Source of the DNA: Flavobacteriales bacterium
Lineage (GTDB): Bacteria > Bacteroidota > Bacteroidia > UBA4408
Assembly: GCA_040383885.1 (NCBI GenBank)
Contig: JBEICQ010000003.1
Location: 1-48,879, forward strand
DNA: 48,879 nucleotides
Direction: 5' to 3'
Both the position numbers and the translations under genes were made by a program. Under the pieces are notes generated by a model that did not search any database, had not been told where the DNA came from, and worked only from the letters and a program-made list of their open reading frames with translations. Positions 6,926 through 43,489 of this stretch are shown here, piece after piece. Within the stretch, counting starts at the first letter, position 1. Every line of letters begins with the position of its first letter.

Positions 6926-7480
6926 ATGATGAAAAAGATTTTTGCATCTGCCTTGTTGCTCTCAGGCATGCTTTTTAGTACGCCCATGATGGCGCAAAAA
7001 ACGGGGTATGTTAACCTGAATGACCTGCTCTTGCTGATGCCCGAAAGAAAAAAAGCAGAAACGGATATTCAGGACTATGCCAAGCAACTGGATGGCCAGA
7101 TGAAAACCATGTCGTCTGAATATGAAAACAAGGTTTCTGATTACCAATCGAAAGAGGCCCTGATGACAGAGCCGGTTAAATTGGATAAGCAAAAAGAACT
7201 GGCTGATCTGGAAGAACGCATCAAGAATTTTCAGCAAACCGCTCAGGAATCTCTTCAGAAAAAACAAAATGAACTGCTCGAGCCAATGATCAAAAAAGCG
7301 AAAAAATCCATCGAGGATGTGGCGAAAGAAAATGGATACAAGCAAGTGCTGGATACCAGTTCAGGTTATGTTCTTTACAACGACCCTGCAGACGACATCC
7401 TTCCATTGGTAAAGAAAAAGCTAGGCTTGTCAGCAGAAGCCTCACCGGCAAAAGAATCAGTTCCTGCTCCCAAGAAATAA
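6926..7480 (+). CDS. skp: OmpH/Skp periplasmic chaperone (second paralog)
   Basis: Signal peptide, QKTGYVN, coiled coil and VAKENGY..VLD. Confidence 0.9.
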   Translation: MMKKIFASALLLSGMLFSTPMMAQKTGYVNLNDLLLLMPERKKAETDIQDYAKQLDGQMKTMSSEYENKVSDYQSKEALMTEPVKLDKQKELADLEERIKNFQQTAQESLQKKQNELLEPMIKKAKKSIEDVAKENGYKQVLDTSSGYVLYNDPADDILPLVKKKLGLSAEASPAKESVPAPKK

Positions 7481-7549
7481 TCTCCACCTGCTCTGCTCCA
7501 CAAGTAAGTAAAAGCTTTTGTGAGAGGCAGGCAACACACTGTGAGATTC

Positions 7550-9313
7550 CTATTTTTCTGCGGCTTCAATAAGAAACTTTTCCTGCCTACACCTGCGCTC
7601 TCCGGAGGCACGCAAATATGCAGTGGGTTCATCGTCTGTATGCACAAACTTCCCTTGGTGTGATTCAAAAGCAATTGTATCCCCGCTAAAACTGTGTAGG
7701 GTAAATATTTCCCATGTACCAATCTTGTTTCGATTGGCAACAATTGTGTCTTTTCTATCCCCGTCTGCACTCAGGAATTTTCCGCGGGCATTTTTTACGA
7801 GCACGCGTCCATCATGATCTATCCTGATGATGCTAAAAATTTCTGCCTTTTCATAGGATACTTCTCCGGCCACAAGCGCATCGTTCCTCTTAGGATCTGT
7901 TTTCAGATAGCCACCCCGCAGACATTTAATCCTTACATTTTCATGTTCCATCAGGTCGATCATCAGATTGTTGCCAAAACATGTTTTCATGATTTTGCCT
8001 TCTCCAACATTTTTTTTGAACTCAAACCAATCCCAGTAAGGTCGTCCGTTAAAGCAATACTCAAAGGCAGAAAGGGTGTTTAGATTGATAAGCAGAAGAA
8101 GAGAGAGAATAGCGTAAACTGTTATTTTTTTTCCTGTGCCCGAAACCCCTGCTAAAAACGCAAAAAAAGGCAGACTTATCAGTGGAAGAATATCCACCAG
8201 GGCGCGGCATCCGTAGGCGCAACCCAAAAACCAGGAATACCAGGAAGCATAGAGGTAGCTGAACAGGAGAAAGCAAACCAGGATAAAAAATGCAGCGTAT
8301 TTTTGATGAAAAATTTGATGGAAAGAGGAAGCCACAACAACAAGCAGCAAGGGTGAGTAAAGAAACATTCCATTGAGTGGAGAGAACCACAATTCAGCCA
8401 GTTTGGGGGAATCCAGGTATTGAAAAGACTCCTTTGCATAGGTGTTCACAAAAAAGTTACCATACGCAAATTGGTTATATGCCAGTTGAGGCAAAACAAA
8501 GAGGATAAAAACAAATGCGAATAAGCCCGGACGACTGCTTTGAAAAATAGCAGACATCCTGAGGCGCTCCCCTGCTATTGGAAAAAGACAAACTGCAAAT
8601 ACAAAAGGTACAAAAAGGATATTGAGGTGTCTTACAACGAAAATGAGAGAAACAAGCACCGGAATCCCGATATAGAGAACAGGACGATTGCGTGATGCAG
8701 GATGATGCAGACAGGTATGAAGCAGAAAAAGCAGCAAGGAGAAAAGAAAAAAACTATAGATGTGTGACATCCCGGGTGCGTAAATGGCGTAATAAAAAAG
8801 ATTGGTGCCAAAAAGCAGAAAAAGGAGTCCAATTACAACTACCCTGACTGAGAAAAAAAACCTGAGGTACCGATAAAGAAAAAACAGTCCGGCGTAGAGG
8901 TAAAGCATCCCTGAGATAGCAATGGCTTGTTGGTACTTCTCTGAGAAACCATTGGCATCATCCCGTAAAATCAAGGCAAGGGTATGTGCAGTTAAAAATG
9001 CCGGGGCATTCAGCAAGGCCACGCCGTAAGGATATTTGGTTGTGACTTTCCCCTCCTTTACAACAAATCCATTGCCCAGAAACGGCAATACATGTTGCGG
9101 CATATTGTCATTTCCGAATCCGTAGATAAAGGTGCATGGAAGATAGACATAGTAACCGGCTGCATCAGCATAAATGGGTTTTTTAAAGTTTTCGAATACG
9201 GCAGCATGATAATTCCATGCACGGATAAGAAAAAACAAGCCCAAGGCAAGGAACAAAAGCCATTTGCCTTGTTGCCGGAGTATTTGTAGCATGCTCATCG
9301 GCTGGTTTTTCAT
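7550..9313 (-). CDS. Multi-pass GT-C-like glycosyltransferase fused to a C-terminal fascin-like beta-trefoil domain
   Basis: About 11-12 TM segments, ADAAGYYVYLP after TM1, KYPYG and WFLGCAYGCR. The C-terminal ~130 aa has three repeats including ANRNKIGTWEIF. Confidence 0.6.
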   Translation of the reverse strand: MKNQPMSMLQILRQQGKWLLFLALGLFFLIRAWNYHAAVFENFKKPIYADAAGYYVYLPCTFIYGFGNDNMPQHVLPFLGNGFVVKEGKVTTKYPYGVALLNAPAFLTAHTLALILRDDANGFSEKYQQAIAISGMLYLYAGLFFLYRYLRFFFSVRVVVIGLLFLLFGTNLFYYAIYAPGMSHIYSFFLFSLLLFLLHTCLHHPASRNRPVLYIGIPVLVSLIFVVRHLNILFVPFVFAVCLFPIAGERLRMSAIFQSSRPGLFAFVFILFVLPQLAYNQFAYGNFFVNTYAKESFQYLDSPKLAELWFSPLNGMFLYSPLLLVVVASSFHQIFHQKYAAFFILVCFLLFSYLYASWYSWFLGCAYGCRALVDILPLISLPFFAFLAGVSGTGKKITVYAILSLLLLINLNTLSAFEYCFNGRPYWDWFEFKKNVGEGKIMKTCFGNNLMIDLMEHENVRIKCLRGGYLKTDPKRNDALVAGEVSYEKAEIFSIIRIDHDGRVLVKNARGKFLSADGDRKDTIVANRNKIGTWEIFTLHSFSGDTIAFESHQGKFVHTDDEPTAYLRASGERRCRQEKFLIEAAEK

Positions 9314-30292: not shown

Positions 30293-31540
30293 TTATCCGA
30301 ACGAAACCAAAAAACCCATTTTTTTCAAATCATCCCAAAATCCGGGATAGGATTTACTCACATGTGAAGGATTGGAGATACTTACTTCTCCTTTCCTGAT
30401 GGCAGTCATGGCCAGTCCCATAATGATTCTGTGATCTGCCCATCCGTTGAACAATGGTGTAATTAATTCCGGGCCGGTATCCCCAAAAGACAAGGCATCC
30501 TTTTCCGGATGAATATTTTCGGTACCCAATCCTTGCAGAGATTTTACGAGCGCATCAATGCGGTCTGATTCCTTGATCCGGAGTGTGTAAAGACCATTGG
30601 CTCTTAGTTGAATCTGAGCGGCTGCACAACCGAAAACAAATGGAATAACGATGTCGGGCACATCAGAAAAATCAGCAATGCATTGTTTAATGGTGGTCTT
30701 GCCTTTGGTGATGGTGATACCATTGTCGTTGTACTCAGTTTTCACGCCAAGCAAGCCAAAATAGTCTGCAACTATGCGGTCTCCCTGAAAACTCTCTCTG
30801 TTGAGGCCCGGGAGATGAATCTCCGCTTCATCAGCCAGCAGGGCGGCCTGATACCAGAAGGCAGATGCGCTCCAGTCCGGCTCTACCACATACTTGTTGT
30901 CTGTGAGATTGGTATTGCTGTATGTTCCGCTAAAAACCTCAATCAATTCACCGTTCCAATCGGCCGCAACTCCAAACTTCCGCATCAGACCAAGGGTCAT
31001 GTCAATGTAAGGTTTGGATACGATGTTTCCTTTTATTTCGAGCGTGAAAACATCTTTTGCAAAAGCAGGAGACAACAACAAAAGCGCGGTTATAAACTGA
31101 CTAGACACATCACCTTGTATACTCAGGTTGTTACCTTGTAGTTTTTGACCTTTGATGCGCAAGGGCGGAAAACCGTTTCTGGAGGCATATTCGATGCTTG
31201 CACCCAGTTTGTTTAGTGCCTCTACCAGTGGTCCGATGGGCCGTTGCAACATGCGTGAACTTCCGTTCAAAATATGGGTGCCTTCCCGAGTAGCATAATA
31301 AGCAGTTAAAAAACGCATCACTGTTCCTGAGTCGCCGGCATCAATCATCGCATCACCTGATTGTAATAGCTGCTGCATTTTTTTTGTATCCTCAGCTGCA
31401 GACAAATTTTCAATATCAAATGAATCGCTGCACAAAGCCCGTATCATCAGGCAACGGTTGCTAATGCTTTTTGAACCGGGCAAATGGATGATTCCCCTGA
31501 GTGCCCGGCCTTTTGGATACTTAATGTGAACTTGATTCAA
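30293..31540 (-). CDS. aroA: 3-phosphoshikimate 1-carboxyvinyltransferase (EPSP synthase)
   Basis: PGSKSISNR, SSQF, LRIKESDR, DHR and KSYPGFW. Confidence 0.92.
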   Translation of the reverse strand: MNQVHIKYPKGRALRGIIHLPGSKSISNRCLMIRALCSDSFDIENLSAAEDTKKMQQLLQSGDAMIDAGDSGTVMRFLTAYYATREGTHILNGSSRMLQRPIGPLVEALNKLGASIEYASRNGFPPLRIKGQKLQGNNLSIQGDVSSQFITALLLLSPAFAKDVFTLEIKGNIVSKPYIDMTLGLMRKFGVAADWNGELIEVFSGTYSNTNLTDNKYVVEPDWSASAFWYQAALLADEAEIHLPGLNRESFQGDRIVADYFGLLGVKTEYNDNGITITKGKTTIKQCIADFSDVPDIVIPFVFGCAAAQIQLRANGLYTLRIKESDRIDALVKSLQGLGTENIHPEKDALSFGDTGPELITPLFNGWADHRIIMGLAMTAIRKGEVSISNPSHVSKSYPGFWDDLKKMGFLVSFG

Positions 31541-32574
31541 ATCTTTTGGTATTGTAGTGAATAATAGGAAAGTGCCTGTTGTGCCTCCGGTTCACTTACC
31601 CATACACCATATGCACATTCTTTGGTTGTCTCCATCAGGCTCATGCGTATTTGTCCCCCGGAATTCCTTTTATCGTGGTAAATGTAATGGCTGAGTTCAT
31701 TCCAGTTTGGAGCAGGCACCGGCAGATAATAAACATTGATTGTTGATAACAACTCATTGAGCCATTTTTCTGAAAGTTTGAACTTCCTCAGGCTGATATA
31801 TGCTTCCATTACCATTCCGGCAGCAATTGCCTCCCCATGTAAAAGAGGATGGGGAGAATTTTGCGAAAGAGCTTCGATGGCGTGGCCCATGGTGTGACCA
31901 AAATTCAGACACTGTCTGATGCCTTTGTCATACGGATCTGAAGTTGTTATTTGTAGTTTATGGAGGGCTGCCTCCCTGATCAAGAAAGACAGATTATCTG
32001 AAAAAAAAGAAGGAGTTCTTAGGGCATAAAAATTACCACCCGATAGGATTCTGGATTTGATGATTTCTGCATAACCATTGATTTTTTCGCGCGGAGGGAG
32101 GCTTTCCAAAAAACCCATCCATATGAGAATGTGATTAGGTTCATAAAAGCTGCCAAGGATGTTTTTTACCCCTTTGAAGTCCACTCCATTTTTGCCTCCA
32201 ATAGCGGCATCGCACATCGCCATGATGGTGGTGGGTATCAAGTGTAGAGAAATTCCTCTTTTGTATACGGAGGCGCAGAGGGCAGCAACATCTGTTACTA
32301 CTCCCCCACCCAGGGCTATCAACACATCTGATTTCTGAAAATGATTTTCATGAAGCAGATTCCAGATTGCCATGCATGTGTCGATATTTTTAGAGGATTC
32401 GCCGGGCTGCATCACATAAAGAAACCTGTTTTCCGGCAACAGGTGACCGATGAGCGGCAGGCAATGGGTTTGGGTATTTACATCACAAACAACAAGGCAT
32501 TGATTGCCTTTGTCTTGCAGAAATGGATGCATCTCCTCAAGAGAATCAAAAAAAACCGGGGGCTTGTTGAGCAC
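31537..32574 (-). CDS. aroB: 3-dehydroquinate synthase
   Basis: GGGVVTD, DAAIGGKNG, LNFGHTMGHAIE and HGEAI. Start uncertain (GTG 32574 or 32580). Confidence 0.9.
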   Translation of the reverse strand: MLNKPPVFFDSLEEMHPFLQDKGNQCLVVCDVNTQTHCLPLIGHLLPENRFLYVMQPGESSKNIDTCMAIWNLLHENHFQKSDVLIALGGGVVTDVAALCASVYKRGISLHLIPTTIMAMCDAAIGGKNGVDFKGVKNILGSFYEPNHILIWMGFLESLPPREKINGYAEIIKSRILSGGNFYALRTPSFFSDNLSFLIREAALHKLQITTSDPYDKGIRQCLNFGHTMGHAIEALSQNSPHPLLHGEAIAAGMVMEAYISLRKFKLSEKWLNELLSTINVYYLPVPAPNWNELSHYIYHDKRNSGGQIRMSLMETTKECAYGVWVSEPEAQQALSYYSLQYQKI

Positions 32575-32701
32575 AATCACAAAAAAAATACAAACACTTA
32601 GACCATTCTTACATGATTCAAAAAAAATACCCCTGCACATTGTTGATAAGTATCGTTGTCGGCAGTTCCTTTCAAACACTACGGAATTACTTTTGGGATC
32701 T

Positions 32702-34429
32702 ATGAACCTACACTGGACCGACTGGAGCATCATTGTTGCTTATCTGGCTCTCTCGCTGGGTATTGGCTTGTATTACCGCAAGCGTGCAGGCCGCAACATG
32801 AGTGAGTTTTTTTTGGGGGGAAGATCCCTTTCCTGGTTCCTTGCCGGCATTTCGATGGTGGCCACCACATTTGCAGCCGATACCCCTCTGGCGGTAAACG
32901 AACTGGTGGCTAAAAATGGCATTGCCGGCAACTGGTTATGGTGGAGTTTTTTGCTTGGCGGGATGCTCACTACTTTTTTCTTTTCGGGTTTGTGGAGGCG
33001 GGCAGAGATATTAACAGAGGCAGAGTTGGTGGAGTTTCGTTACGGAGGAAAACCGGCTGCCTGGCTCAGGGGATTTAAGGCCGTCTACCTGGGTTTGTTT
33101 ATCAATTGTTTAATCATTGGTTGGGTCAATCTGGCACTGGTTTCCATCCTGCAGGTTTTTTTTGGTATCAGCGAACAAACGGCTTTGTGGTATGTTGGGG
33201 GAGCCATGCTCATTACCTCAGTGTATTCAGCCATTTCGGGTTTAATGGGTGTGGCAGTAACAGATGCCGTCCAATTCCTGATTGCCATGGCAGGTTGTAT
33301 TGTTCTGGCAGTGTTGGTTGTTGAATCTCCCCGAATAGGCGGCCTGGAAGGACTCAAGGCAAAACTCCCCGAAGGCTCACTGGATTTTTTTCCGAAGATT
33401 GGATCGGAGAATGTCCTGGGCACGCTGAGTATTTCACTGGGTGCTTTTTTAGCTTATACCACCGTGATGTGGTGGAGCAGCTGGTATCCGGGAGCAGAAC
33501 CCGGCGGAGGCGGCTATGTGGCCCAGCGCATGATGAGCGCGAAAGATGAAAAAAACAGCATTCTCGCCACCCTGCTTTTTCAGGTTGCGCATTATTGTAT
33601 TCGTCCCTGGCCATGGATTTTGGTTGGACTGTGTTCCATCGTTCTTTATCCCGAACTGGCCGAGGATGAGAAGCGTCTTGGTTATGTGCTTGCGATGAAA
33701 GAGTTTTTGCCTGCAGGCTTAAAAGGCCTGTTGCTGGTTGCTTTTTTGGCTGCCTACATGAGTACCATCTCCACACAACTTAACTGGGGTGCCAGCTACC
33801 TTGTGAATGATTTATACCGGCGATTCATCAAACCTGATGTATCCGATGAAAAGCATTATGTACAAGTAGCAAGGTATATCACCATCGCTTGCATGGTGGT
33901 ATCGCTGTTTGTTACTTCCCGCATCGCATCCATTTCCGGGGTATGGGGTTTTATCATTGAATGCGGGGCAGGCCTGGGTGCAGTGCTGATCCTGCGCTGG
34001 TATTGGTGGCGGATCAATGCCTATGCAGAGATCGCAGCCACCCTGAGTCCGTTTGTTTTTTATGGCATTGCCCGGTATTCCGGATGGGTTTTTCCGGAGA
34101 GCTACTTTTTTACGGTTGGGCTCACCACTGTCACCTGGCTCTGCGTGATGTGGCTCACTCCTGCTGAGGATACAAAGCACCTGCAGAAATTTTATGACAG
34201 GGTAAGGCCCGGAGGATGGTGGAAGCCTTTTTCGGGGGGAACAAACAGGGGCCAATCGGGTTGGCTTATCGCAGCATGGCTCTCAGCAACCGTGGGAACC
34301 TACTCCATACTTTTTGCCACGGGCTATTTCCTCTTCGGTAATTGGGAATTGCTGGCTACCTGTGTATTAAGCGCATGTGCTTCCTTCGGTATCCTACTTA
34401 AGGCACTGAACAAGGTTTCGGTTTTGTGA
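32702..34429 (+). CDS. Sodium:solute symporter (SSS) family protein
   Basis: FFLGGRSL, SMVATTFAADTP, YVAQRMMSAK and AAYMST. ATG 32702 lies 6 nt after TACTTTTG. Confidence 0.9.
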   Translation: MNLHWTDWSIIVAYLALSLGIGLYYRKRAGRNMSEFFLGGRSLSWFLAGISMVATTFAADTPLAVNELVAKNGIAGNWLWWSFLLGGMLTTFFFSGLWRRAEILTEAELVEFRYGGKPAAWLRGFKAVYLGLFINCLIIGWVNLALVSILQVFFGISEQTALWYVGGAMLITSVYSAISGLMGVAVTDAVQFLIAMAGCIVLAVLVVESPRIGGLEGLKAKLPEGSLDFFPKIGSENVLGTLSISLGAFLAYTTVMWWSSWYPGAEPGGGGYVAQRMMSAKDEKNSILATLLFQVAHYCIRPWPWILVGLCSIVLYPELAEDEKRLGYVLAMKEFLPAGLKGLLLVAFLAAYMSTISTQLNWGASYLVNDLYRRFIKPDVSDEKHYVQVARYITIACMVVSLFVTSRIASISGVWGFIIECGAGLGAVLILRWYWWRINAYAEIAATLSPFVFYGIARYSGWVFPESYFFTVGLTTVTWLCVMWLTPAEDTKHLQKFYDRVRPGGWWKPFSGGTNRGQSGWLIAAWLSATVGTYSILFATGYFLFGNWELLATCVLSACASFGILLKALNKVSVL

Positions 34430-34452
34430 GCGTGGAAAAAATGCTAAGTTTG
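34423..34452 (+). promoter_or_regulatory. Bacteroidota sigma-A-like promoter for the four-gene operon
   Basis: TTTG (34423-34426), 18 nt spacer, TAAGTTTG (34445-34452). Confidence 0.5.
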
Positions 34453-34471: not shown

Positions 34472-35371
34472 ATGTATAAACCCCTCCGAATCTTTTACAC
34501 AGCTGTCTTTTTTGCGGCTTTCACACTTGCTTTTTGGTCCTGTAGCGGAAATACCAAAAGTGAACTCGAACAGGAAGCTGAAAAGCTGGACAGTAATAAG
34601 TCAAACCTCATCAACATCAATGGCACCTTGTTTTGCATCCCCTCTCCCCTGCAAACATCCATGCTCCTCAAACAAAGCGGTGCCAAATACGACAAGACCA
34701 TCCTGAATCCTGCTGCCAACATCAGCAAGTATTCCACCTCGGTAAAGAAGTCCCTCAACCTCGGTGTGTACGGAGCAGATTTAGGATATGTGATTTTATA
34801 CCAGCAAACGCAGGATGCACTCGCTTACATGTCCATTCTCAAAAAGCTGGGAGATGATGTGGGGATCTCAGGTGCCTTTGATGAAGCACTGCTCAAGCGG
34901 TTTGAAAAAAATCTTTCTGTGCAGGATTCACTTATGGCCATGAGTGGTGAGGCATTCCGCAACACGGATGCCTTTTTGAAAAACAATGACCGTATGGATG
35001 CAAGTGCACTGATTGTTGCAGGTGGCTGGATTGAGAGTGTGTATTTTATCTCTGCTTACACATCAAGAGTAAACGATAAAAATAAAATTATTCAGCGACT
35101 GGGGGAACAAAAATCCACGCTGGACAATCTCATCAAAATGCTTACTCCTTACTACCAGCAGGAAGGGTACACCGAATTTATTGATGCATTGACTGATCTG
35201 GCATCAGACTTCGACCAGGTAGAGATGAAGTATACTTATGTGAAACCGGAGCATGACGAGGTCAACAAAATTACCACCATTAAGAGCACCAGTTCAGCAG
35301 TAGTAGCACCGGAAGTGCTCAAAAGCATCATAGATAAAATTACCAAACTCCGTAACAGCGTCATTCAATAA
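34472..35371 (+). CDS. Uncharacterised alpha-helical lipoprotein
   Basis: Lipobox FWSC; IPSPLQ, LNLGVYGADLGY and GGWIESVY; helical periodicity. Confidence 0.7.
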   Translation: MYKPLRIFYTAVFFAAFTLAFWSCSGNTKSELEQEAEKLDSNKSNLININGTLFCIPSPLQTSMLLKQSGAKYDKTILNPAANISKYSTSVKKSLNLGVYGADLGYVILYQQTQDALAYMSILKKLGDDVGISGAFDEALLKRFEKNLSVQDSLMAMSGEAFRNTDAFLKNNDRMDASALIVAGGWIESVYFISAYTSRVNDKNKIIQRLGEQKSTLDNLIKMLTPYYQQEGYTEFIDALTDLASDFDQVEMKYTYVKPEHDEVNKITTIKSTSSAVVAPEVLKSIIDKITKLRNSVIQ

Positions 35372-35373
35372 GC

Positions 35374-35790
35374 ATGAAAAAATTCATTCTTCTCCTTGCC
35401 ATTTCCATCTGGTTTTTACCGGCTACTCTTCGTGCCCAGTGCGACACCATCGCATCGCTTTGCGTAAAAAACCTGACGGCCAAATACATCTCCGACGGCC
35501 AACAATACAGAGCCCTTTTGCTGAGCAAAGAAGTGGCAGAGTTCAATGCTACCTTTTACGGAGGCACCACTTATCGATTGGCTGCCTGCTCAGGACTGAA
35601 AGACGGTAGTTTGGAATTCCGCATTTTTGATAAACAGCGAAATTTGCTTTTTACAAACATTGAACATAAAAATGCACCCTACTGGGATTTTAAATTTGAA
35701 TCTACCATGGATTGTATTATCGAAGCTCAGCTGATTGACCCCAATGTTAAATCAGGATGTGCGGTATTACTCATCAGCTTCAAAAAATAA
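35374..35790 (+). CDS. Uncharacterised small secreted Cys-containing beta protein
   Basis: Signal peptide ending LRA-QC, several Cys and short beta strands; 2 nt after the previous stop. Confidence 0.7.
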   Translation: MKKFILLLAISIWFLPATLRAQCDTIASLCVKNLTAKYISDGQQYRALLLSKEVAEFNATFYGGTTYRLAACSGLKDGSLEFRIFDKQRNLLFTNIEHKNAPYWDFKFESTMDCIIEAQLIDPNVKSGCAVLLISFKK

Positions 35791-35809
35791 CCGAACGCTT
35801 CTGCGGTGC

Positions 35810-36220
35810 ATGATATTCATTCGTTTTTCTGCCATCTGCATCGTTTTAATCTCACGGGTCGTGTTAGTAAACGCCCAAACTGTTTTTCATCCTGAGGAGA
35901 TGACAACAGACACCTTACAGGATATCTGGGTAAAACCACTTGCCTCTGATAGTTTATCATCTTCTTTCCTGATTTCGGTAAAAAAACAAGTTCCGCTTCA
36001 CCTGCATGCCATGCATGCTGAACATGTATATGTATTGAGCGGAAAGGGATTGATGACCCTCGGCGAAAAGCAAATAATGATAGCGCCCGGCGATTTCTTT
36101 TTTATTCCACAGAACACGCCACACGCATTGCTTGTAACAGAATCACCCGTAAAAATTCTATCCATTCAATCACCCCGGTTCGATGGCAAAGACCGCGTGC
36201 TCTTGGAACAAAAAAAATAA
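35810..36220 (+). CDS. Cupin-domain protein with a probable signal peptide
   Basis: Cupin motifs LHLHAMHAEHVYVLSGKG and PGDFFFIPQNTPH; hydrophobic N-terminus ending VNA-Q. Confidence 0.8.
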   Translation: MIFIRFSAICIVLISRVVLVNAQTVFHPEEMTTDTLQDIWVKPLASDSLSSSFLISVKKQVPLHLHAMHAEHVYVLSGKGLMTLGEKQIMIAPGDFFFIPQNTPHALLVTESPVKILSIQSPRFDGKDRVLLEQKK

Positions 36221-36223
36221 ACC

Positions 36224-39200
36224 ATGTCAGAAAATATTCTTCGGGCGCTGATGCGTCTTTTTGCCCTGATTTCCAAAGTTGAAGATGAAGCGTCCATGCA
36301 AAAAGGCCTGGGTGTGGTAAAGGACTATCTGGCTCAACAGCTCAACACTGAACAAGTTGCGCTTTATCTTGAGTTATACAAAGAGTTTTTGGTTTCTCAC
36401 CACAAGCTGAATGATACCAGCAAGGCCAGCAAGCGTGTGTCGCTCAATTCTGTGAAAGTGCTGCGTATCTGTACCGAGATCAATGGTGAACTGCTGCAAA
36501 GGCAAAAAGTAATTGTGCTCATCAGACTTGTTGAATTTATCAACTCAGCAACCGCAGTATCAGATCAAGAGCTCGAGTTTTTGGAAAGTGTTGCGCAAAC
36601 ATTCAACATTCCCGACGAGGAATTCCGCAGACTAAAGCAGTTTATCAATATCCATTCTGCAACCACCGAACCCATCGGAGAATTGCTGGTAATCAGCGGA
36701 AGTAAAAGAGAACAGACTGGAGGAAAATTTCTTTATGCAGACGGAATGGATGGAGAAATCATGGTTATTCCCGTGCCAAGTGTGCAATTATATGTATGCA
36801 GATACATGGGCACTTCCGAGATATACCTGAACGGTCAGGTGATCAACGATAACAAGCTCCACATACTCACACAGGGATCCATCATCCGTGGTAGCAGAAT
36901 GAGTCCTGTTTTCTACAGCGAAATCATCTCGCAGTATATGCAGGAAAACCGGGAAAAAACAATTGTTTTTGAAGCCAAAGACCTCGAATATCATTTTAAG
37001 AGCGGAAAAAAAGGACTGCACACACTCCGCTTTACTGAGGAATCAGGAACGCTTGTGGGAATCATGGGCGGAAGCGGTGCGGGTAAATCAACAGTACTGA
37101 ATGTACTGAACGGAAATGAAAAGCCATCCTCCGGAAAAGTTACCATTAACGGCATTGATATCCATCATGAAAAACACCGCATAGAAGGTGTGATAGGATA
37201 TGTTTCTCAGGATGATTTGTTGATAGATGAACTCACTGTTTATCAAAATCTATTCTACAATGCAAAACTGTGTTTCGGCCAATATGACGATGAGAAAATC
37301 TCAAAACTTGTCATGGATTTGCTGCTCAGTTTGGGACTTCAGGATACTGCCCATCTCAAGGTAGGAAGCCCGCTCGACAAGACCATCTCCGGAGGCCAAC
37401 GCAAGCGCTTGAATATTGGCCTTGAATTGATCCGCGAGCCTGCTGTGCTTTTTGTAGATGAACCAACTTCCGGACTTTCATCCAGGGATTCTGAAAACAT
37501 CATGGACCTGCTGAAAGAACTTTCTCAAAAAGGGAAACTTGTTTTTGTGGTGATACATCAGCCCAGTTCGGATATTTTTAAAATGTTTGACAAGCTGCTA
37601 ATTCTCGATCTTGGCGGTTACCCTATTTATTACGGGAATCCCGTAGAGTCGCTTATCTATTTTAAGAAGCGGGTAAACCATGTAAATGCGGGTGAAAGTG
37701 AGTGTATTCATTGCGGTAATGTAAATCCGGAACAGGTATTCAATATCATTGAAACCCGGGTTGTTGATGAGTATGGAAACCAAACCGTAAACCGTAAGAT
37801 TTCACCTTCTGAGTGGAACCAGGAATATATCAAGTACCTGAAACCCCCGAGCGAGAAACAAAAAGCCTACACGGAAATTCCTGAAAGTACTTTTAAAATC
37901 CCAAATCCCTTCAGGCAGTTCGTCATCTTTGTAACCAGGGATGTGCTCTCCAAGCTTACCAATGTTCAATACCTTGCCATCAATACCCTTGAAACACCCT
38001 TGTTGGCAATTATTTTAGCCTGGCTTGTAAAATTCTTCATTACCGAGGGAGGCAGTAAAAGTGGCTATCATTTTTTTGAAAACGAAAATATTCCTGCCTA
38101 CATTCTGATGGGTGTGGTAATTGCATTGTTTGTGGGACTTACAGTGAGTGCAGAGGAAATTTTTAAAGACCGAAAAATTCTCAAAAGAGAATCCTTCCTC
38201 AATCTCTCCAGAACAAGTTACCTGTGGTCTAAAATCGCTATTTTGTTTTCGCTATCAGCCATACAGACCCTCATGTTTGTGTTGCTAGGGAATACCATCC
38301 TTGGCATCAATGGTATGTATTTCGATTACTGGCTCATGCTCTTCAGCGTTTCTTGTTTTGCAAACATGCTTGGACTAAATATCTCTGCCAGTTTTAATTC
38401 TGCAGTTACCATCTATATCCTGATTCCGTTCCTGATTATTCCGCAGCTCATCCTGAGCGGAGTAATTGTGAAGTTTGACAAGCTGCATCCAAAAATCACT
38501 TCACAGGCAAAAGTACCGGTAGTAGGTGACTTAATGGCTTCACGATGGGCGTATGAGGCACTTGCCGTGAATCAGTTCCGGAACAATGCATATGAAAAAC
38601 CCTTGTATGAATTCGACAGACTCAAAAGTGAAGCCGACTGGAGAAAAACCTACTGGGTTGTGGAGATGAAACAAATCCTGGATGCAATTGGTGATAATCT
38701 GGAAAGAACCGAACCCGAATTACATCAAAAAGTGCAGGATGATCTTGCACTTATCCGAACTGAACTGGAAGCACACAATAAAGTTTGTCCGCTCACATTC
38801 AATCAGAATGATAAACTAAGCGTAGAAAGTTTTAACAAACAAACCCTGGAAACAGTCAATGCCTATCTCGACAATGTTTCCGGTTTCTACAAAAGGAAAT
38901 ACAATTTTGTAAGCAAAAAGAAAGACGCCTATGTCTATTCACTTACCAGTAACTCTGCCTCCAGAGAAGCTTATGAAATCCTGAGGGATGAAAATGAAAA
39001 TGAAAACCTGAGCATGTTGGTTACACAAAAGAATGTGCTCGATAAAAAAATCATCCGAACAGAAGGCCGCCTGGTGCAAAAAGCGGATCCCATATTCAAT
39101 AATCCCTCCGCCAATACATTTCTCAGGGCACATTTTTTTGCCCCTACTAAATCAATATTCGGCAACCGCATGAATACCTATTGGGTGAACTTCTCCGTAA

Positions 39201-39316
39201 TCTGGTTCATGTCTTTGGCTTTGCTGGTTACATTGTATTTTGATGCCTTTAAAAAACTGCTCGACTTGTTTGGTAAAATCAAAATCAGTAGGCTGTTTGC
39301 CAAGGGAAAAAAGTAA
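36224..39316 (+). CDS. ABCG/White-type ABC transporter (NBD-TMD) with N-terminal TerB-like and FHA-like domains
   Basis: Walker A GGSGAGKST, YVSQDD, ISGGQRKR, LFVDEPTSGL and VIHQPS; six-TM ABC-2 domain. The N-terminal ~140 aa is helical and TerB-like. Confidence 0.8.
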   Translation: MSENILRALMRLFALISKVEDEASMQKGLGVVKDYLAQQLNTEQVALYLELYKEFLVSHHKLNDTSKASKRVSLNSVKVLRICTEINGELLQRQKVIVLIRLVEFINSATAVSDQELEFLESVAQTFNIPDEEFRRLKQFINIHSATTEPIGELLVISGSKREQTGGKFLYADGMDGEIMVIPVPSVQLYVCRYMGTSEIYLNGQVINDNKLHILTQGSIIRGSRMSPVFYSEIISQYMQENREKTIVFEAKDLEYHFKSGKKGLHTLRFTEESGTLVGIMGGSGAGKSTVLNVLNGNEKPSSGKVTINGIDIHHEKHRIEGVIGYVSQDDLLIDELTVYQNLFYNAKLCFGQYDDEKISKLVMDLLLSLGLQDTAHLKVGSPLDKTISGGQRKRLNIGLELIREPAVLFVDEPTSGLSSRDSENIMDLLKELSQKGKLVFVVIHQPSSDIFKMFDKLLILDLGGYPIYYGNPVESLIYFKKRVNHVNAGESECIHCGNVNPEQVFNIIETRVVDEYGNQTVNRKISPSEWNQEYIKYLKPPSEKQKAYTEIPESTFKIPNPFRQFVIFVTRDVLSKLTNVQYLAINTLETPLLAIILAWLVKFFITEGGSKSGYHFFENENIPAYILMGVVIALFVGLTVSAEEIFKDRKILKRESFLNLSRTSYLWSKIAILFSLSAIQTLMFVLLGNTILGINGMYFDYWLMLFSVSCFANMLGLNISASFNSAVTIYILIPFLIIPQLILSGVIVKFDKLHPKITSQAKVPVVGDLMASRWAYEALAVNQFRNNAYEKPLYEFDRLKSEADWRKTYWVVEMKQILDAIGDNLERTEPELHQKVQDDLALIRTELEAHNKVCPLTFNQNDKLSVESFNKQTLETVNAYLDNVSGFYKRKYNFVSKKKDAYVYSLTSNSASREAYEILRDENENENLSMLVTQKNVLDKKIIRTEGRLVQKADPIFNNPSANTFLRAHFFAPTKSIFGNRMNTYWVNFSVIWFMSLALLVTLYFDAFKKLLDLFGKIKISRLFAKGKK

Positions 39317-40712: not shown

Positions 40713-40749
40713 CAAAGATAGTTGAAACAAAGGCTTTGTATTACTTTTG
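40713..40749. promoter_or_regulatory. Back-to-back divergent -7 elements
   Basis: TATCTTTG on the minus strand (40713-40720) and TACTTTTG on the plus strand (40742-40749). Confidence 0.5.
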
Positions 40750-40758
40750 TTACCACTT

Positions 40759-41280
40759 ATGGGACTCAAACCAAAAAAAGCATCAGAAACCCTTGCTGTT
40801 TCGACTATAATTGTTTTACCAAACGACACCAATACCATCGGCAACATGATGGGTGGCAGGCTGCTGCATCACCTGGATGTGGTGGGTGCCATAGCTGCTC
40901 ACCGCTTGTGCCACAGGGTGGTGGTAACAGCGGCAGTAAACAATGTATCTTTCAATCAACCTATTAAACTGGCAGATATCGTAACGCTGGAAGCCAAAGT
41001 GTCTCGTTCATTTACCACCTCCATGGAGGTTTGTATTGATGTGTATGTAGAAAATCATGCCAACGGATCAAAAACAAAATGCAACGAAGCTATCTATACC
41101 TTTGTTGCAGTTGATCAGATTGGAAGTCCGATTGCCGTACCGGAGATAATTCCTGAAACGCCGCTTGAAACAGAAAGATACAATGCCGCACTTCGGAGAA
41201 GGCAATTGAGCCTGATTCTCGCAGGCAAGTTAAAACCTGATGATGCCACAGAGTTAAAATCTTTATTCAGTAAACCCTAA
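40759..41280 (+). CDS. Hotdog-fold acyl-CoA thioesterase
   Basis: LPNDTNTIGNMMGGRLL..D, VVTAAV, TSMEV and YTFVAVD. Confidence 0.9.
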   Translation: MGLKPKKASETLAVSTIIVLPNDTNTIGNMMGGRLLHHLDVVGAIAAHRLCHRVVVTAAVNNVSFNQPIKLADIVTLEAKVSRSFTTSMEVCIDVYVENHANGSKTKCNEAIYTFVAVDQIGSPIAVPEIIPETPLETERYNAALRRRQLSLILAGKLKPDDATELKSLFSKP

Positions 41281-41281
41281 G

Positions 41282-43489
41282 ATGCTAAAAAAAATCCTCT
41301 ACAGCCTTCTTGTCATTCCTGTAGCGGGATTTTTTATTTATCTGTATATCCACAACAAACAAAATCGGGAAGCGCCACCTCGTTTTTTACAACTGATGCC
41401 AAACGGTTGGCAGGAAGTGTATTGGTATGAAGAAGGCAGGAAAGACGCACACACCGGGCTTTTGCAAGAAGCAAGCGCCTTACCGGACAGCAACAATTTT
41501 ACCAAAAAGAACAGGGCCTTGTTGCGTCTGCTGGAACCTATGATCAGTGAGCCTTTTGCCCTTGCCCTATATCCGGCAACAAAAGGTTTTTTATGGATGA
41601 TTCGATTACCGGATAAAACACCACTGAGTATCCTTGAATCCCATTGCAAGAAAAACAGATTCACATTCACTTCTGCCAACAACAATGAGGGAACCATTGG
41701 CTATGGTTCAGATGTTTGGCATGTATGTATCAAAAGAGGGATTCTTTTTCTTTCCAATACAGAAATCATAATAAAAGCGGCAGCAGCCAGACTAAATGAA
41801 ACTGAAAACAATGTTTCCCTTAAAATCACCTCCCTGCTAAGCAGCATTCCGGGCTCATATGCTTTTTCAAAAATCAGTATACGGCAAGGTGGAGATACCC
41901 TACTGGAAAAGGTTAAGTTGCGCGGGAGTTTCAGCGAAATCATCGGATTACAGCTGAACAGCCTGAAGCAGAAAAAAGAAGATCCCACCACTGATTCTAA
42001 ACTCAAACTGTGGTCACTCTTGCCTGTAAACACCCTCTCTGCTGTAGGAATGGCAGTACCCGAAAACAAATTGAAATACATTGAAGCCTGTCGCCTGACC
42101 ATGGCGGGATTCAAACATCCTGCCTTCCTGATTTTTCACAACAATGATTCCATTAAAGCAACAGAAGCCGGGGAAATCATCAATAAAATGTTCGGCAAAT
42201 TACCCGAAGGACTCAAGGTGGGCACCTGCGATGAAAAACTTGCATGCCTTACTGCTGATACCAACCAGTTGGCTGCGATGATGTATATGCATCAATCAGG
42301 ACTCACAACAGGAAAAGATTCAACCTTTTCCGGTTTTAAACAACATGATGGAAGCTACTGGACATGGACTGGTGCAACTGCAGACGGCAACATGATGACA
42401 AGCACGCTGAAGATAAATGCCCGCATCAATACCATGCAAGGCTGTTATATTCAAAACTGCAGCAGCATGCCCTATAACCGATATTTTGTGCCTGTTGGTA
42501 TTAAGGAGCATGCTGATAGCATTGAAGATTGCATAGGCTTTGAATTAAAAAACATAAAACACTTTGTGTTTTGTTACAGAAGCCTCGTGATGATGGTTGA
42601 TGAAAACGGAAGTTTGGTATGGAAAAAGAAAATGTCTCTTCCACTCATGGGTGAAATTACACTGATGCGTTCAAAAAGTGATGGGTATCGAATCCTTTGT
42701 AACACGGCAGACAGCATTTATGCTTTTACTCCTCAAGGAAAAAGTGCCAAAGGATTTCCTGTTTTTATCGCCGGAAAAACACAATACCCACTGCATGTTT
42801 TATACAATCATCAGGAGCCGGACTATCGTATTTCACTGAGTACCCGAAAAGGAAAAATTCTGGTGATAAAATCCAACGGGAAAAAACCGGAAGATTTTAA
42901 ACCTTCAGATTTGCCTGCACCGGCAAGTCGGATTTATGGTGTATTTAAAGGAGATAAAAAGTGTTATTACTATATTGATAGTGTTCAAAACCTCATAGAA
43001 TTTAGCGGAAAAGGAAAACTGACATCAACTGACAGTATCGTCCTCCGAAAAGAAAATATCAGGTGTTATGATTTGTCATCCCGACCGGGTGGAGAACTGT
43101 TTTTAACCCTGGCCGACAACCAGGGAAATCTCACAGCCATTGACCTGGGAAAAGAAAAATCCATCAACTGCAAAAGCGGATTAAAAGGGCTTACCGCTTG
43201 CTCTTATGCGGGCGAAGGAAACTTTGCCGTAGGCATTGGAAATGCCTATTATCTCTTGAATGAGCATGGAAAAATTATACGAAAATCTTCTCAGGCAAAA
43301 GCGATGAAAGATGTTTTTACACCTTACAGCGATAGAGAATATGCATGGTTTGATGGAAGAAAAACAGAGTTTTTTAAATCGAAATCCTCAACTGCTGCCC
43401 TTGTTTGGGGTAAAAAGATAGCCTCATTGATATACACGGATTCCTCCACAAATATCTGGTTTGCCGATGGTCGCTTGTTGAGGCAATAA
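41282..43489 (+). CDS. Membrane-anchored hypothetical protein with a probable C-terminal beta-propeller (distantly DUF3352-like)
   Basis: Single N-terminal TM; C-terminal beta repeats (ENGSLVWK, KGFPV, GNLTAID). Family call is tentative. Confidence 0.5.
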   Translation: MLKKILYSLLVIPVAGFFIYLYIHNKQNREAPPRFLQLMPNGWQEVYWYEEGRKDAHTGLLQEASALPDSNNFTKKNRALLRLLEPMISEPFALALYPATKGFLWMIRLPDKTPLSILESHCKKNRFTFTSANNNEGTIGYGSDVWHVCIKRGILFLSNTEIIIKAAAARLNETENNVSLKITSLLSSIPGSYAFSKISIRQGGDTLLEKVKLRGSFSEIIGLQLNSLKQKKEDPTTDSKLKLWSLLPVNTLSAVGMAVPENKLKYIEACRLTMAGFKHPAFLIFHNNDSIKATEAGEIINKMFGKLPEGLKVGTCDEKLACLTADTNQLAAMMYMHQSGLTTGKDSTFSGFKQHDGSYWTWTGATADGNMMTSTLKINARINTMQGCYIQNCSSMPYNRYFVPVGIKEHADSIEDCIGFELKNIKHFVFCYRSLVMMVDENGSLVWKKKMSLPLMGEITLMRSKSDGYRILCNTADSIYAFTPQGKSAKGFPVFIAGKTQYPLHVLYNHQEPDYRISLSTRKGKILVIKSNGKKPEDFKPSDLPAPASRIYGVFKGDKKCYYYIDSVQNLIEFSGKGKLTSTDSIVLRKENIRCYDLSSRPGGELFLTLADNQGNLTAIDLGKEKSINCKSGLKGLTACSYAGEGNFAVGIGNAYYLLNEHGKIIRKSSQAKAMKDVFTPYSDREYAWFDGRKTEFFKSKSSTAALVWGKKIASLIYTDSSTNIWFADGRLLRQ

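Follow-up and report, generated by a model that had tools for sequence, protein, structure and literature searches.

A 48,879-nucleotide stretch of contig JBEICQ010000003.1 from a Flavobacteriales bacterium (assembly GCA_040383885.1), referred to below as the window, carries four co-oriented genes on the + strand. They encode a lipoprotein (g1), a small secreted protein (g2), a secreted cupin, and a single-chain ATP-binding cassette (ABC) transporter, and their coordinates are collected in Table 1. As an earlier note on this sequence had described, the genes are separated by gaps of 2, 19, and 3 nucleotides. That note regarded all four as one operon in which three exported proteins serve the transporter. 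Comparison with related genomes points to a different set: g1, g2, and the transporter belong to one envelope module in which g1 is the common element, and their co-inheritance points to an unstudied transport module.

Table 1. Genes and features of the locus (positions in the window; ORF, open reading frame; NBD, nucleotide-binding domain; TMD, transmembrane domain; TM, transmembrane segment).
Feature	Position	Strand	Size or residues	Description
g1	34472-35371	+	299 aa	lipoprotein, lipidated Cys24, family not catalogued
g2	35374-35790	+	138 aa	secreted protein, predicted beta-sandwich, five Cys, family not catalogued
Cupin gene	35810-36220	+	136 aa	counted from an ATG inside the longer ORF 35735-36220
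Transporter gene	36224-39316	+	1030 aa	TerB, beta-rich domain, NBD, ABC-2 TMD
TerB-like domain	36224-36640	+	residues 1-139	cytoplasmic, PF05099
Unassigned beta-rich domain	36656-36973	+	residues 145-250	called FHA-like in the earlier note
CxxC motif	37703-37714	+	C494, C497	cytoplasmic NBD-TMD linker of the transporter
Periplasmic loop	38486-39184	+	residues 755-987	TM5 to TM6, predicted from hydropathy and the positive-inside rule
Sodium:solute symporter (SSF) gene	32504-34429	+		longest ORF; likely true start ATG at 32702
Promoter-like motif, Bacteroidetes-type	34423-34452	+		TTTG 34423-34426, TAAGTTTG 34445-34452; consensus match only

Conservation of the gene set

Two sets of loci were used to examine the neighbourhood. 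The wider one was drawn from species-representative genomes and holds at least 588 loci with a relative of g2, the best 80 of which gave the neighbourhood counts. Within these 80, g1 lies directly upstream of g2 at all 78 loci with room for it, and the transporter follows within 700 nucleotides downstream of g2 at 65 of 77. The second set was built around 40 homologues of the transporter, found in 38 related genomes of which the window's own is one. Here g1, g2, and the transporter stand in a row at 22 of the 40 loci. A further 11 loci, holding distant paralogs of the transporter (43-55% identity), have an adjoining g1-like gene (27-35% identity) and no g2, and make up 11 of the 18 loci that lack the full trio. 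At the other 7 neither g1 nor g2 was found within the fetched flanks; in 4 of these 7 genomes the orthologous g1-g2 pair was located elsewhere, still paired. The same tight pairing was found for g2 matches lying away from a transporter, where g1 directly precedes g2 in 15/15 cases (5/5 ortholog pairs and 10/10 paralog pairs).

The cupin does not share this pattern. It is found between g2 and the transporter at 1 of the best 80 loci and at 2 of the 22 trio loci of close relatives (L021 and L024). In other lineages the same slot is occupied by unrelated secreted proteins of about 161-171 residues (L139:7443-7943, L143:5320-5805, and L155 at about 7423-7941), which have signal peptides, several cysteines, and no Pfam family above threshold. 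The cupin gene is lineage-specific, inserted at a variable slot, and not a part of the conserved module. The claim that all three exported proteins are dedicated partners of the transporter therefore survives for g1 and g2, on adjacency and phyletic co-occurrence, and has to be given up for the cupin.

Phyletic profiles follow the linkage. Across 251 evenly sampled Bacteroidota genomes, the N-terminal profile of the transporter was found in 9 and the g1 profile in exactly those 9, while the g2 profile was present in 5 of them. The module was found in none of the genomes of the two largest families of this sample (0/51 and 0/41). Among 41 closer relatives, a full-length transporter was present in 34 and a g2-family match in 33, and all 7 genomes without a full-length transporter were also without g2. 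Since related genomes are not independent, these counts should be read as a pattern, not as a statistical test. Records carrying the module, some of them labelled Vicingus, are assigned to Vicingaceae, Cryomorphaceae, Salibacteraceae, uncultured Flavobacteriales, and unclassified Bacteroidia.

In a quick maximum-likelihood tree, 47 members of the g1 family fell into two clades. In one, of 29 members, g1 is linked to g2 and in most cases also to the transporter; in the other, of 18 members, g1 genes with only the transporter and those with only g2 occupy separate branches. The types of neighbour fall in well-supported clades. The loci searched did not include L021, and the tree omits g1'' of the window's own genome, whose match is shorter than 200 residues and lies at a contig end. 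This g1'' belongs to L057 (39-3819 on another contig), where a g1-like gene, cut by the contig end, stands directly upstream of a paralogous TerB-bearing ABCG transporter with 48% identity, and where there is no g2.

In addition, most genomes contain a second, diverged pair, g1'-g2'. Its neighbours vary by genus, being an ORF of about 930-990 residues in several and a LolC/E-like permease in one, and no conserved third gene was found beside it across the genera compared. The copy in the window's genome lies on another contig (L065, 1164-3797, - strand), with 34% and 26% identity to g1 and g2. It is followed on the same strand by the LolC/E-like permease, which is of the FtsX/MacB type (MacB_PCD at 6.2e-10, TIGR02212 at 3.1e-33 but below its cut-off) and was seen as a neighbour of g1'-g2' in the window's genus only.

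All ORFs of the best 80 loci were clustered to find recurrent neighbours, and no kinase or phosphatase was found among them. Two further genes did recur. The gene upstream of g1 in the window encodes a sodium:solute symporter (Pfam SSF, 4.2e-38), and at 29 of 68 loci with at least 2200 nucleotides of room the gene just before g1, in the same orientation, is a homologue with 47-60% identity; the arrangement is also found in the window, L021, and L034. Directly downstream of the transporter, 19 of 59 loci have a gene for a membrane protein of about 734 residues with a patatin-like phospholipase domain (1e-7; for example L096:9272-11476, with 18 further loci), which has no homologue in the window. 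Both neighbours come largely from one group of related metagenome-assembled genomes (MAGs). In one genus (L035, L038, and L039) the transporter is separated from g1-g2 and lies directly after lptB (TIGR04406, 1.3e-114), and a small SiaC-like gene of the DUF1987 type follows it. The patatin-like neighbour, lptB, and the LolC/E-like permease give a weak, lineage-limited hint at envelope lipids.

The transporter and its exported partners

In Pfam searches the transporter matched ABC_tran at residues 265-416 (5.9e-30) and ABC2_membrane (PF01061) at residues 564-785 (3.3e-16, 59.9 bits against a cut-off of 26.9). The NBD precedes the membrane domain in one chain, which is the arrangement of an ABCG-type half-transporter, and the nearest solved relatives by sequence are the ABCG and PDR exporters of lipids and drugs Cdr1, Pdr5, ABCG1, and ABCG2, the last aligning over residues 277-752. 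The best NCBIfam model, TIGR00955 for pigment precursor permeases of the White subfamily, gave 8.9e-72 and 242.6 bits, far below its cut-off of 736.35. By these matches the protein is ABCG-like but falls outside the TIGR00955 subfamily. A MacB/FtsX-type assignment was also checked: the membrane domain is ABC2_membrane, and FtsX and MacB_PCD were met only beside the paralog pair elsewhere in the genome.

Residues G285, G287, K288, S289, T290, S389-Q392, D412, E413, and H445 are invariant in 40/40 transporter orthologs, and Walker A, the signature, Walker B with the catalytic glutamate (E413), and the H-loop are all intact. The cytoplasmic linker between the NBD and TMD contains a CxxC motif in which C494 and C497, together with E493, G498, N499, V500, and E503, are likewise invariant in 40/40. 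In a dimer of the transporter, the two CxxC motifs could make a four-cysteine metal site.

Hydropathy analysis gave five hydrophobic segments within residues 584-748, then a stretch of 233 residues, and a last segment at 988-1006. Because positive charges are concentrated in residues 642-670 (7 Lys/Arg) and in the C-terminal tail (6 Lys/Arg), the 233-residue stretch is placed outside the cytoplasm, in the periplasm. It spans 228-239 residues in 38 of 40 orthologs, and its composition (3 Pro and 3 Gly in 165 residues) is the sole indication of a helical character. Pfam domain order and hydropathy agree with the description in the earlier note of a single-chain NBD-TMD transporter with a large extracytoplasmic loop before its last membrane segment.

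The N-terminus had been called TerB/FHA-like, of which only the TerB half has held. PF05099 matched 30 of 31 aligned relatives of the transporter at E<=0.05 (best E 5.5e-10), is precomputed on many of 120 listed relatives, and is a feature of the clusters to which the protein atlas assigns this N-terminus; the window's own copy scored 19.2 bits, below the PF05099 cut-off of 24.4. For FHA, genome-wide scans with PF00498 and PF16697 gave no match in the transporter even at E<=10, no FHA model was found among the 31 aligned N-termini, and PF00498 is carried by none of the 120 listed relatives. Alignment of the N-terminal profile (31 sequences) with five genuine FHA domains from relatives using hhalign gave a probability of 6.6%, with a thin FHA profile, and an N-terminal profile matched no solved chain at E<=1, which leaves residues 145-250 unassigned. 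In the window's genome, which is 93.8% complete, no match to PF00498 or PF16697 rose above the Pfam cut-off, and FHA domains over it were found in 4 of 31 relatives. The FHA-based analogy with Rv1747 fails on sequence, both in the searches at E<=10 and in the hhalign comparison.

The export signals assigned earlier to the three small proteins were borne out. In g1 the hydrophobic N-terminus ends in FWSC, and the lipidated Cys24 is invariant in 56/56 and 41/41 aligned relatives, with Gly, Ser, or Ala at position -1 in the 41 listed orthologs. Both g2 and the cupin have hydrophobic, signal peptide-like N-termini followed by Ala-Gln (LRA/QCD and VNA/QTV, respectively), which fits the 'Q-rule' described for signal peptidase I substrates of Bacteroidetes (PMC5837995, PMC10653852). 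The cupin itself matched Cupin_2 (PF07883) at 5.3e-14, with 52.1 bits against a cut-off of 27.2.

Apart from scattered chance hits, g1, g2, and their aligned relatives matched nothing in Pfam or NCBIfam, and no such model of LolA, LolB, LptA, LptE, MlaC, or MlaA matched g1 or g2 at E<=0.1. The g1 family is large, with 3360 clusters at 50% identity (E<=0.001), nearly all of about 300 residues, and the protein atlas placed g1 solely among unnamed Bacteroidota lipoprotein clusters. Invariant polar residues of g1 include D103, Y106, D152, E188, Q213, R209, and K214. The AlphaFold model of g1 (predicted local distance difference test, pLDDT, 87.2) has a disordered acidic linker past the lipid anchor, followed by a helical bundle and a small sheet. 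No fold could be assigned to it: the best Foldseek match in the Protein Data Bank (PDB) had E 0.2, and VIA-align over 48,161 chains reached a best Z of 6.8, the matches being generic helical bundles only, plus an imelysin-like protein at Z 5.4.

Mean column identity of g2 is 57-63%, unusually high for a small secreted protein, and in its alignment C30 is invariant while C23, C72, and C129 are conserved at >=90%. The model of g2 (pLDDT 81.9) has an N-terminal helix and an eight-strand sandwich. Its fold matches include the GOLD domain of the p24 protein TMED1 (Z 9.9 over 98 residues, root-mean-square deviation (rmsd) 2.8) and PliG (Z 9.2 over 93 residues, rmsd 2.5; by Foldseek, E 3.3e-5 and TM 0.54), with pre-peptidase (PPC) and collagen-binding domains also near Z 9. 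By predicted structure g2 resembles a GOLD/PliG-like sandwich, in a flat list of 17 chains with Z>=8 that has no sequence family behind it.

Interpretation and relation to known systems

The reading that we tentatively favour, at slightly less than an even chance, is that the pump uses ATP to export a lipophilic envelope component, for which g1-g2 would be the periplasmic acceptor or adaptor. This reading is favoured because of the fold class of the pump, its periplasmic loop, its exported partners, and the scattered lipid-related neighbours. Gene linkage, co-inheritance, domain make-up, intact ATPase motifs, and export signals are direct observations; building on them, the TerB-ABCG protein would dimerise in the inner membrane and hydrolyse ATP, and, as other exporters of the ABC-2/ABCG fold do, would extrude a lipophilic envelope component from the membrane toward its periplasmic domain of about 230 residues. 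Lipid-anchored g1 and soluble g2 would act at this loop as acceptor or adaptor, and the cytoplasmic TerB domain and the domain at residues 145-250 would regulate the pump. In a bolder version, the module may be a hitherto unrecognised trans-envelope route of Bacteroidia for lipids or lipophiles, in which the pump passes its substrate to g2 as a GOLD-like carrier and to g1 as receptor, and the variable slot contains lineage-specific secreted clients such as the cupin; this we regard as possible but doubtful. Equally doubtful is the suggestion that such a route might be a bacterial counterpart of ABCA1/apolipoprotein or Lol, built from two undescribed families.

Several observations weigh against export with g1-g2 as acceptor. 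At 12 of the 77 loci the g1-g2 pair has no adjacent transporter, and stand-alone g1'-g2' pairs in most genomes mean that the pair can function away from the pump. Conversely, one family in the 251-genome sample has the transporter and g1 without g2 (4 genomes). The loop has the lowest sequence conservation of the transporter, 0.48 in residues 796-960, which covers its distal part. No substrate or lipid-synthesis gene was consistently nearby among the clustered ORFs of the best 80 loci. The flat list of g2 matches is typical of a common fold, and a ligand of g2 would not be told by that fold. The place of g1 is a further point. A surface signal of Bacteroidetes lipoproteins, the lipoprotein export signal (LES), has been described as K-(D/E)2 or Q-A-(D/E)2 (PMC5080379). 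In the window, g1 reads CSGNTKSELEQE, with no Asp or Glu at +2 to +6, but 12 of 41 g1 orthologs have at least two acidic residues within five positions after the lipidated cysteine. With a signal resembling K-(D/E)2, g1 would be at the cell surface, beyond the reach of the loop; by these sequences g1 may lie on the periplasmic face or at the cell surface. Complex prediction is neutral. The loop (residues 750-990) and g2 (22-138) with g1 (40-299) scored 0.91, 0.91, and 0.91, against 0.00 and 0.00 when g1 was replaced; an unrelated protein in place of the loop still gave 0.89, so that the score is independent of the loop and is no evidence for or against binding.

The same linkage evidence would serve a mechanism of mechanotransmission, in which ATP-driven movement of the loop switches g1-g2, perhaps a periplasmic enzyme, inhibitor, or chaperone, on or off, in the manner of FtsEX-EnvC and NosDFY-NosL. 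A loop that is long, conserved in length, and poor in conserved sequence is what a lever or scaffold would look like, and the many invariant polar residues of g1 recall an active or binding site. However, the membrane domain is ABC-2/ABCG and not FtsX/MacB, known members of that fold export, and g1 and g2 match no enzyme family, which makes this reading unlikely. Somewhat harder to sustain is the view that g1-g2 work on their own in the periplasm, perhaps as a binding pair or a defensive inhibitor, and share just regulation or positional ancestry with the transporter, to which they would not be physically coupled. The pair does occur with no transporter nearby, in the 12/77 and 15/15 loci given above, and PliG, a periplasmic lysozyme inhibitor, is among the top fold matches of g2. 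Yet the g1 and TerB-ABCG families are found in the same 9 of 251 genomes and are absent from the other 242, g1-like genes also adjoin paralogous transporters, and many unrelated sandwiches match g2 as well as PliG does.

The symporter could instead be the centre of an uptake or recycling unit, with g1-g2 capturing a solute for it and the ABCG pump exporting a derivative. Its recurrence directly upstream of g1 on the same strand (29/68 loci, plus the window, L021, and L034) would agree with this, as would its retention with g1-g2 at loci without the transporter (L111, L131, L134, L149, L153, and L154). It is absent, however, from 39 of the 68 loci, those that have it are not independent because they come largely from one group of related MAGs, and its substrate was not identified by family models; we consider such a unit improbable. 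Least credible, and hardly to be expected now, is the four-gene system of the earlier note, in which the cupin was a dedicated partner or substrate and FHA provided phospho-threonine regulation as in Rv1747. In the window's operon, and within its genus, the cupin is indeed closely packed (19 and 3 nucleotides from its neighbours), and it has a signal peptide. Against this stand its presence at 1 of 80 loci, the unrelated secreted proteins in the slot of other lineages, the lack of any FHA signal in the transporter, and the lack of one over the cut-off in the window's genome. The four-gene reading is largely refuted by the neighbourhood counts.

Export to a g1-g2 acceptor can be compared with several known machines. 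With the eukaryotic ABCG/PDR proteins (ABCG1, ABCG2, ABCG5/8, Cdr1, and Pdr5) the transporter shares an NBD placed before the TMD in one chain and an ABC-2 membrane domain. It differs from them in having TerB and the domain at residues 145-250, a TM5-TM6 loop of about 230 residues, where that of ABCG2 is short, and dedicated lipoprotein and secreted partners. In NosDFY-NosL and ABCA1, ABC-2-fold machines with large extracytoplasmic domains pass cargo to a lipoprotein (Nos) or an apolipoprotein (ABCA1). Neither NosD nor NosL was found to be related in sequence to the proteins here and no metal-site residues were identified, and the analogy is functional only.

Rv1747 of Mycobacterium tuberculosis is an ABC exporter with an FHA domain, under the control of the kinase PknF (PMC3138270). 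Like the present protein, it is a bacterial exporter that joins NBD and TMD in a single chain and has additional regulatory domains at its cytoplasmic N-terminus; in contrast, the transporter described here has no detectable FHA and no kinase among its recurrent neighbours. We know of no partners of the g1/g2 type for Rv1747. Lipoprotein sorting by LolCDE-LolA-LolB, for which Bacteroidota versions are described (PMC11885536), works on the same principle, in that an ABC machine of the inner membrane is combined with a soluble protein in the periplasm and a lipoprotein. There is no homology between the two: the membrane domain here is ABC-2 and not FtsX, and g1 and g2 match no LolA or LolB model.

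The earlier view that no characterised system has this make-up agrees with the blank Pfam and NCBIfam results for g1 and g2. Nothing on a TerB-ABC transporter or on the g1-g2-transporter set was found in the literature searched, with subscription journals outside its coverage. ABC machines with periplasmic and lipoprotein partners are already known; what is new is a TerB-bearing pump of the ABCG fold linked to two families that are not catalogued. Hardly any bacterial transporters of this fold are known to have envelope partners of their own, and the result is a strongly co-inherited three-part module together with a large uncatalogued lipoprotein family and a highly conserved small secreted partner. 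It offers envelope biologists a concrete target in little-studied Flavobacteriales-like lineages, with the gene set corrected by dropping the cupin and with the upstream symporter to be considered. Should a membrane lipid or pigment be what the pump exports, the module would represent a new route in Bacteroidota outer-membrane biogenesis and a bacterial model of ABCG/ABCA-type lipid hand-over to acceptors.

Transcription and flanking genes

The earlier note placed the four genes behind their own promoter. TTTG and TAAGTTTG are indeed present, the latter ending 19 nucleotides ahead of the g1 ATG. In the window, TANNTTTG occurs 33 times against 42 expected by chance and is thus not enriched, and the gap from the symporter stop codon to g1 is 42 nucleotides. 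A separate promoter for g1 is possible on this motif, but the claim that it is g1's own is unsupported, because the motif is not enriched and the gap to the symporter is so short. An operon boundary at g1 is doubtful as well, because the symporter gene precedes g1 at 29 of 68 loci. One metatranscriptome run (X1) gave four short contigs 95-99% alike to the locus, covering g1, the g1 end with 19 nucleotides of g2, the cupin, and the transporter. On its g2 side the junction contig extends for fewer than 31 letters, and DNA carry-over is possible; these contigs are no evidence of co-transcription.

Farther downstream in the window, a gene for a 4HBT thioesterase (40747-41280) precedes an ORF of 735 residues (41282-43489, + strand), which has an N-terminal hydrophobic segment and no Pfam family at E<=0.01. 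On the other side, upstream and in the opposite orientation, are aroA and aroB (30293-32733, - strand). In another genus (L022 and L023), aroA and aroB directly abut g1, and therefore the symporter of the window stands between conserved flanks.

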